Of a stretch of 64,000 nucleotides of DNA, positions 44,898-46,508 are shown one piece after another. A program made the translations under genes and the position numbers. The DNA is from Acidiferrobacterales bacterium (GTDB taxonomy: Bacteria; Pseudomonadota; Gammaproteobacteria; Acidiferrobacterales; SPGG2), in the NCBI GenBank assembly GCA_046759385.1, contig JBHICC010000010.1:1117-65116 (forward strand). Direction: 5' to 3'. The notes beneath the pieces are model-generated. The model was not told where the DNA came from, ran no database searches, and saw nothing but the letters and a program-made list of their open reading frames with translations. How positions within the stretch are numbered: position 1 is the first letter of the stretch; every line of letters begins with the position of its first letter.

Positions 44898-46508
44898 ATG
44901 CCGCTCGTGAACGCGCCCTCTGTCAATAAGATCGTTCAGTTCCTTGAAACCCAGAAAGGCCGGCTTCCGCGCATCGCCAAGGAAGCGGGGCTTGGATTGG
45001 AGTGGTTGCGCAAGCTGGTGTCCGGCCAGATTCGCGATCCCGGCGCCAGCAAAATTGAAAAGCTCTGGGCCTACATGAACGGACAGCCGGGCACCCAGGA
45101 TGAAGAACAATATATACGGCTTACCGCACTGTCGCCGTTAGATGGACGCTACCGGCATAAGACCGAAGCCCTACGTGCACTCTTTAGCGAATCGGCGCTT
45201 ATTCATCACCGCGTGCAGGTGGAGATCGAATGGTTGCGCGCCCTTGCGGTGAACCCACATATTGTCGAGATCATACAGTTCTCTCTAGATGCCGATGCGC
45301 AGCTCCAGCGGATAATCCGAGAATTTTCCGAGGACGACGCCGTTCGGATCAAGGAGATTGAACGGGAGATCAACCATGATGTTAAAGCAGTTGAATATTT
45401 CCTACGCGAGAAAGTGCGTGGTCACATTGAACTCGAGGGAGCCAGAGAATTCATTCATTTTGCTTGTACATCAGAGGACGTTAATAACCTCGCATACGCG
45501 CTTATGTTGAAAGCAAGTAGGGACGAGATCCTCTTGCCCGACATGGATCGACTCATTGACAAGCTCAGCGAGCTAGCGGAGCGCTACGCAGACCAGCCAA
45601 TGCTCGCGCATACTCACGGCCAACCCGCCTCTCCCACAACCTTGGGCAAAGAGATGGCTAATGTTGCCTTCCGCTTACAACGTCAACGCGAACAGACGGC
45701 CACCATTCAGATCATGGGCAAACTCAATGGCGCAGTCGGCAACTACAACGCCCACTGCGTCGCGTACCCCGACGTGGACTGGGCGGCAGAAACGAAGAAG
45801 TTTGTCGAGCGTTTAGGGCTGGTTCATAACCCATATACAACCCAAATCGAGCCCCATGACTATATCGCCGAGCTGTTCGATGCCATCGCCCGGTTTAACA
45901 CAGTATTGATTGACTTTAACCGTGATGTGTGGGGATACATCTCACTGGGGTACTTTAAACAGAAGCTGGTGGCCGGCGAGGTAGGGTCCTCGACGATGCC
46001 TCACAAGATCAATCCTATCGACTTCGAGAACTCCGAGGGCAATCTTGGGTTAGCGAATGCGTTGTTGGGTCATTTGACAGAAAAGCTTCCGGTAAGCCGC
46101 TGGCAGCGCGACCTTTCGGATTCAACTGTGTTGAGGAATATGGGGGTGGCCATTGGCTACTGTGTGCTCGCCTACGACGCCTGTCTGCAAGGTCTGAACA
46201 AGATCGAGGCCGATACCCATCGATTAGGCCGTGACCTGGACAACAACTGGGAGGTTCTGACGGAGGCAATCCAGACCATGCTGCGCCGTCACCACGTGGA
46301 AGATGCTTATGACAAGCTTAAGCGCTATGCGCGTGGCCGAAGCAGTATGAGCCGAGAGGCGATACACCGATTTGTTCAATCGCTCGACATCCCGGAGGAT
46401 TCGAAGCGACGCCTGCTCGCCCTGCAACCGGCAACCTACATCGGTATCGCAGCGGCCTTGGCCAAAGCGGGGCGCAAGCCCGGCCAACCTCTAGACGACA
46501 GCGACTAG
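44898..46508 (+). CDS. purB: Adenylosuccinate lyase with N-terminal HTH-like extension
   Basis: [11 protein letters not shown] begins only at residue 75; [33 protein letters not shown]. Confidence 0.95.

Follow-up and report, generated by a model that had tools for sequence, protein, structure and literature searches.

A 64,000-nucleotide stretch from an uncultured vent bacterium of the order Acidiferrobacterales (contig JBHICC010000010.1; the whole stretch is called the window here, and positions are its own) carries a gene that encodes, as one polypeptide, a Cro/XRE-type helix-turn-helix (HTH)-fold domain, a flexible linker and a complete adenylosuccinate lyase (PurB). The gene is a forward-strand open reading frame (ORF) of 536 amino acids, 44898..46508, in which an N-terminal extension runs into PurB without an intervening stop; an earlier note, made from the DNA letters, had drawn attention to these ~70 extra in-frame residues. 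We are almost certain of the anatomy: an HTH-fold domain and PurB are truly fused, and the fusion is translated and conserved. Features of the locus are collected in Table 1.

The lyase part is a complete, probably active PurB and a full member of the Escherichia coli-type PurB equivalog. Residues 73-524 of the ORF matched the NCBIfam equivalog NF006764 (E value 5e-219; 727.2 bits, cut-off 446), the equivalog TIGR00928 scored 415.2 bits on the same ORF against a cut-off of 326.2, and Pfam placed Lyase_1 (PF00206) at residues 83-381 and ASL_C (PF08328) at residues 400-515. In Foldseek, the AlphaFold2 model of the full-length protein matched E. coli adenylosuccinate lyase (2ptr/2ptq) with an E value of 6e-39, a target template-modelling score (TMt) of 0.91 and 59-60% identity. 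The segments SSTMPHK.NP, TSED and THGQ, which include the signature loop, are invariant in 21 of 21 fused sequences, and together with the 2ptr fold match this agrees with the claim that the catalytic motifs are intact; we take the catalytic residues to be those of the His/Ser region and the signature loop. In its identity, fold and signature motifs, the core is like the E. coli-type enzymes (2PTR, 2PTQ, 2PTS; PRK09285), from which the fused protein differs by its extra N-terminal residues. The fused gene is the sole purB found in its own assembly (84.7% complete), where one match exceeded the TIGR00928 cut-off and two superfamily paralogues fell below it, at 99 and 70 bits. Pfam also gave an HTH_31 match inside ASL_C, at 46311-46412 (residues 472-505; E value 0.034; 14.9 bits, cut-off 27), which is below the cut-off, was taken as spurious and is distinct from the N-terminal HTH.

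The architecture recurs elsewhere. A search with the first 75 residues against 41 genomes (the bacterium's own and 40 relatives) found the extension in 10: its own and 9 of the 40, namely seven of the eight others in its family, the single genome of family f9 and one of six from family f7. Extension and PurB share one open frame in every genome where the contig lets it be seen; in G008 and G001 the extension locus is cut at contig ends, and G007, the only same-family genome with no match to the extension, yielded no purB either. In protein databases, residues 1-78 retrieved 20 clusters of 518-556 amino acids that were 59-79% identical over the extension, all 20 carrying both PF00206 and PF08328. 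The fusion is present in 12 species-representative metagenome-assembled genomes (MAGs).

The extension is under purifying selection at the protein level and is not a chance open frame. Among eight orthologues aligned gap-free (28 pairs; L008, with a six-codon insertion in the linker, and the truncated L010 were left out), the HTH domain had a proportion of nonsynonymous differences (pN) of 0.015-0.225 versus a synonymous proportion (pS) of 0.32-0.93, with omega of 0.036-0.198 in the 17 pairs whose synonymous sites were unsaturated. Variation fell on 55 of 59 third codon positions, 24 of 59 first positions and 21 of 59 second positions. Forward frame 0 was the only frame open across the extension in all eight orthologues, and an antisense ORF at 44817..45110 (97 amino acids) was discarded as not conserved, its frame being stopped in five of the eight. 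The internal methionine encoded at 45075 (Met60) is isoleucine in 5 of 21 aligned orthologues; because of this replacement, ATG 45075 cannot be a general start, and translation beginning there is unlikely, in line with the earlier note's view of that codon. Four metagenome runs, all from a single study and three of them possibly the origin of the sequence itself, yielded contigs across 44700-45400 that show neither differences nor gaps.

Several comparisons identify the N-terminal domain. PHROG 9425, annotated 'transcriptional repressor', matched residues 9-60 of the extension (E value 1.6e-5). A profile of 104 fused and standalone sequences matched the XRE regulator 2ofy in the PDB (E value 7e-4, profile positions 11-60, covering helices 1-4), a profile of nine fused sequences alone gave 2ofy at 0.38, and sub-threshold profile matches were to 9sf2, CapH (7t5u), DdrO and AcrIIA15. 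In NCBIfam the sole match of the extension was the HTH region of NadR, at a sub-threshold E value of 0.24. Modelled alone with AlphaFold2 (predicted local distance difference test score, pLDDT, 75), the domain has four helices plus a linker helix; its best Foldseek match was a SinR-DNA complex (probability 0.99, template-modelling score (TM) 0.60/0.69), followed among the top matches by DdrO, 2ofy, CapH, C.BclI, HipB, Stl, C.Esp1396I and 434 Cro (TM 0.5-0.69). Nearly all of the Foldseek matches listed are XRE/Cro-type DNA binders, and ranks 10 and 17 were the enzyme MPnS, which has an HTH-like domain inside it. The nearest ESM-Atlas clusters were viral HTH_3/HTH_26 proteins (score 0.95). Nine orthologues of the domain have 32 invariant columns, and the helix-3 segment LGLEWLRKL is invariant in all 21 fused proteins, whose PurB cores are only 63-70% identical. 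Judged from these matches, the N-terminal domain is a Cro/XRE-type HTH, as the earlier note had proposed; it is a divergent member of that superfamily, derived from the small phage-type repressor family, with putative DNA binding.

In the full-length AlphaFold2 model (mean pLDDT 82.9), residues 7-61 of the domain scored 81-88 and residues 64-75 (numbered from the ATG) below 50. As modelled, the HTH is a separate domain on a flexible tether of ~12 residues and is not packed on PurB. The sequence of the tether is not conserved, with pN of 0.06 between the two most similar orthologues and 0.24-0.79 in the other 27 pairs, and L008 has a six-residue insertion; the description of it as a polar linker held up.

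An exhaustive profile search returned 431 proteins that match the domain at an E value of 1e-3 or less. Nearly all of the 150 matches listed are standalone proteins of 55-110 amino acids; the top four look like contig-cut pieces of the fused gene, two of which (P0021 and P0022) extend into the first residues of PurB. All nine of the standalone relatives tested against PHROGs matched PHROG 9425 or 6223, with E values down to 1e-13, and one, P0038, matched 13 temperate-phage records annotated 'putative repressor Cro', 'XRE family transcriptional regulator' or 'DNA-binding domain protein', the others being 'hypothetical protein' or carrying no annotation. Fused and standalone members have a common motif, G-L-G-x-x-W-L-x-K-L-x-x-G-x-I-x-D-P-G. 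Eight of ten standalone relatives tested had no Pfam match at an E value of 1 or less, and these ~430 small proteins look like a Cro-like subfamily that is poorly covered by current Pfam models. One of them, P0033 (140 amino acids), consists of two tandem copies of the Cro-like domain.

Upstream of the gene, a block of ~30 nucleotides (44870-44899) is the sole conserved part of the mnmA-purB intergenic region, which is otherwise unalignable between genera (ten loci). The block contains two -10-like hexamers, TAGTAT (44883-44888) and TAGAAT (44894-44899), which in relatives take the forms TAGTAT or TAATAT and TAGAAT or TACAAT, respectively. Of 13 distinct fused loci, 12 have the second (TAsAAk) ending 6-7 nucleotides upstream of the start codon. 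A promoter scan of the window did not flag the block, and its -35 element is weak. The in-frame ATG at 44898 overlaps the conserved TAGAAT and is not kept in relatives, and GTG 44907 aligns with the start of all relatives (GTG in eight and ATG in two of ten loci). The true start is likely GTG 44907, which would give a protein of 533 amino acids: the open frame reported in the earlier note is exact, and the start placed at ATG 44898 is likely wrong. No Shine-Dalgarno sequence precedes either GTG 44907 or ATG 45075. The alignment suggests that the fused gene is probably transcribed from the block as a leaderless or very-short-leader mRNA, with its 5' end at GTG 44907 or a little upstream. L067 and L068, relatives with a plain purB, have a TGnTAGAAT element and after it a leader of ~55 nucleotides.

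Not every relative carries the domain. In the purB of G014 (locus L059), a natural in-frame deletion took it out, leaving eight codons from its start and the closing codons of the linker; these remnants correspond to a gene like that of L028, and the two loci have a Shine-Dalgarno-led upstream region in common. On a tree of the PurB core built from 31 rows (L019, L023 and L065 were dropped as too short, along with six duplicates), fused and plain forms are intermingled within the order, which calls for at least four changes on well-supported branches. One of these changes is an artefact: the row L046 was labelled 'plain' through being cut at a contig end, and the missing N-terminal half is found as L010 at a different contig end in that genome. 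This tree is most simply read as an old fusion that was then lost repeatedly, and multiple transfers of the fusion may be an alternative history. Set against L028 and L056, L059 is a ready-made 'domain-minus' comparator. The purB matches in G011, G012, G017 and G025:C64 each contain one in-frame TGA.

Within the conserved block lies an imperfect dyad, a candidate operator, whose arms pair at all seven positions in L029, at six in L021 and at five in the window, with a range of 1-7 over ten loci; at least 5 of 7 pairs are reached at 1.5% of all window positions. Eleven of the 13 distinct fused loci contain a core of the form GTAr-N4-TyAC, which occurs upstream of purB in only 1 of 21 plain rows; that single hit, the GTAGTATTTTAC match of L067, falls within the mnmA coding sequence and was treated as chance. 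Such a conserved and partly dyad-symmetric block is compatible with autoregulation.

We favor, tentatively and at slightly less than an even call, the reading that HTH-PurB is a DNA-binding autoregulator, a trigger enzyme acting on its own promoter; the trigger function put forward in the earlier note is plausible. PurB is a tetramer, and Cro/XRE repressors bind dyad operators as dimers. The tetramer would bring the HTH domains together and so supply Cro-like dimerization, the domains would bind the AT-rich dyad block overlapping the gene's own promoter, and binding there would repress purB transcription. Occupancy of the lyase by succinylaminoimidazolecarboxamide ribotide (SAICAR), adenylosuccinate, adenosine monophosphate (AMP) or aminoimidazolecarboxamide ribotide (AICAR) would modulate DNA binding, a form of ligand control that we put forward purely by analogy with BirA, NadR and PutA. 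The most complete version of this proposal is on the unlikely side when taken as a whole: it would make HTH-PurB the first purine-pathway trigger enzyme, with the tetramer's phage-derived Cro-like domains held on the dyad in its own leaderless promoter and released by filling of the active site (SAICAR or adenylosuccinate) or by build-up of AICAR or AMP, in a fusion that is old in Acidiferrobacterales and repeatedly lost. On this version, purB transcription would answer directly to flux through both PurB steps, with no separate regulator of the PurR type.

A number of observations weigh against the autoregulator. The dyad is poorly kept in L024 (3 of 7 pairs) and L026 (1 of 7), and all Foldseek E values of the domain model are weak (0.4-3.3 for the matches named, with 0 of 206 at 0.001 or less). 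The domain is dispensable, because it was lost in G014 and is scattered on the PurB tree. Other observations do double duty, since they also favor the possibility that the HTH fold no longer binds DNA and serves PurB as a structural or protein-interaction module, stabilizing the oligomer or docking a partner, with the block acting only as a promoter or translation-initiation region. The 75-residue N-terminal part matched no Pfam family at an E value of 10 or less and no HTH model, and, as read off the 2ofy profile alignment, L-E-W takes the place of polar residues where such domains usually contact bases. The genomic search for further sites was negative: with up to three mismatches, the 15-nucleotide promoter motif had 28 matches in the bacterium's own genome versus 42 in the control, and with up to two mismatches counts in five relatives were near control, so that no regulon emerged from the six genomes. 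L028, the one exception among the fused loci, keeps the invariant helix without the motif; its start is led by a GGAG Shine-Dalgarno sequence and it has no block. The block has two -10-like hexamers, and the plain genes L067 and L068 have a related TAGAAT promoter; mere promoter function, or enhancement of translation by an AU-rich element, may account for its conservation. The fold match to MPnS offers an enzyme that houses an HTH-like domain. Against a purely structural role stand the net basic charge of the domain, read directly from its sequence, the invariance of helix 3, the disordered linker that leaves the domain unpacked from PurB in the model, and the nearest relatives, which are standalone, repressor-sized proteins annotated as Cro/XRE in phages. 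We take this possibility seriously while considering it doubtful.

Two single sites from the motif search were rejected as operators. One, with two mismatches on C6, falls within a KdsC-like coding frame (the name was read from the translation). The other, with one mismatch at L073 2021-2035 (G003:C15), sits 1 nucleotide away from the start codon of a TruA-like ORF that runs on the opposite strand; read in the direction of that ORF, it gives TAAAAT 7 nucleotides before the ATG and looks like another -10-like element. The TruA-like case hints that leaderless mRNAs, whose start codon directly follows a -10 element, may be frequent in this lineage.

It is quite improbable that the domain binds nucleic acid for another purpose, whether the 5' end of its own mRNA for translation control or targets that the motif search missed: the block would fall at, or close to, the 5' end of an mRNA with a short leader or none, and sites could be missing from an assembly of this completeness, but XRE-type HTH domains are known as double-stranded DNA binders, and the motif is not enriched in the six genomes. 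Least credible of all is an annotation or assembly artefact, in which translation of PurB would begin at ATG 45075, the frame before it being either untranslated or part of another gene; that ATG would leave 14 residues before the PurB start motif, like the 12-17 of plain relatives, and neither start is preceded by a Shine-Dalgarno sequence, but no stop separates the two parts in any orthologue examined, Met60 is replaced by isoleucine in several of them, the extension frame is under strong protein-level selection and the contigs of four runs agree.

Table 1 Features of the HTH-purB locus, in window positions
Feature	Position	Strand	Remarks
mnmA (tRNA 2-thiouridylase), upstream neighbor	43673..44839	+	Pfam tRNA_Me_trans, E value 5e-74
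Conserved AT-rich block	44870..44899	+	read as promoter, possibly with operator
Imperfect 18-bp dyad, candidate operator	44879..44896	.	7-nucleotide arms, 4-nucleotide center; overlaps first three bases of TAGAAT
Probable start codon GTG	44907..44909	+	aligned with relatives' starts; 7 nucleotides after TAGAAT
Cro/XRE-type HTH domain	44907..45083	+	~59 residues, four helices, net basic
Variable polar linker	45084..45113	+	predicted disordered; follows non-conserved internal Met codon 45075
PurB core and stop codon	45114..46508	+	NF006764, TIGR00928, Foldseek

In the textbook examples BirA, NadR and PutA, enzyme-repressor fusions, or 'trigger enzymes', let metabolism act straight on transcription. 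De novo purine synthesis is otherwise controlled by PurR proteins and riboswitches, and we know of no enzyme-repressor fusion for this pathway; a literature search for an HTH-PurB fusion, judged by titles and abstracts, found no paper on one. A further case, RbkR, is described as a bifunctional enzyme/repressor (PMC5397151). Like BirA, NadR, PutA and RbkR, HTH-PurB joins a DNA-binding-type domain covalently to an enzyme of a pathway that it could control, and its HTH is N-terminal as in BirA and NadR. Unlike in those four, the enzyme here is PurB, the HTH belongs to a phage Cro-like subfamily, and DNA binding and ligand control are proposed. The domain is like small phage Cro/XRE repressors (PHROG 9425 and 6223; the 'putative repressor Cro' of Pseudomonas phage PAJU2) in fold, size, sequence family and motif, whereas those proteins are standalone, 55-110 amino acids long and encoded on mobile elements, and the domain here forms part of a housekeeping enzyme whose chromosomal locus is syntenic. 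A housekeeping enzyme has captured a phage Cro-like domain, and selection has preserved the fusion in several families of uncultured sulfur- and iron-oxidizing Gammaproteobacteria, which shows a route by which mobile-element repressors can be recruited into core metabolism. With one protein, one candidate 18-bp site, four candidate ligands and natural deletion derivatives, the system is compact and testable. If the domain does not bind DNA, it would be a clean example of an HTH fold reused inside an enzyme.

The gene order clpA-clpS / cspA / mnmA / HTH-purB / membrane protein / DUF7931 / NlpC-P60 / sucA is kept wholly or partly in 12 loci, which come from MAGs labelled Acidiferrobacterales (six), Gammaproteobacteria (two), Proteobacteria (two), Candidatus Muproteobacteria (one) and 'uncultured Nitrospiraceae' (one). 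In 11 of the 12, L025 being the exception, mnmA lies directly 5' of HTH-purB. We take the order in E. coli to be mnmA-hflD-purB; here mnmA abuts purB, and hflD is elsewhere where found. The suggestion that the HTH stands in place of hflD did not hold. The hflD family (PF04356) was found in 26 of 41 genomes searched, among them all eight others in the family (two with contig-end fragments only); seven of these eight carry the fused purB with hflD on a different contig, and the extension itself had no Pfam match to PF04356. In the window's own genome, 84.7% complete, hflD was not found. The plain-purB relatives L067 and L068 also have mnmA adjoining purB, with no hflD between them.

Two further features lie downstream of HTH-purB. 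On the reverse strand, 46521-47099 encodes a predicted membrane protein of 192 amino acids with no Pfam family at cut-off, the last ~60 residues of which are extremely rich in arginine and lysine; it is syntenic 3' of HTH-purB in 7 of 12 loci, at 31-58% identity. It is followed on the forward strand by a DUF7931 gene (47187-47699; E value 5e-26) that overlaps an NlpC/P60 peptidase gene (47674-48189) by 26 nucleotides. Both are found downstream in 7 of 12 loci, with DUF7931 only in L020 and NlpC/P60 only in L025.

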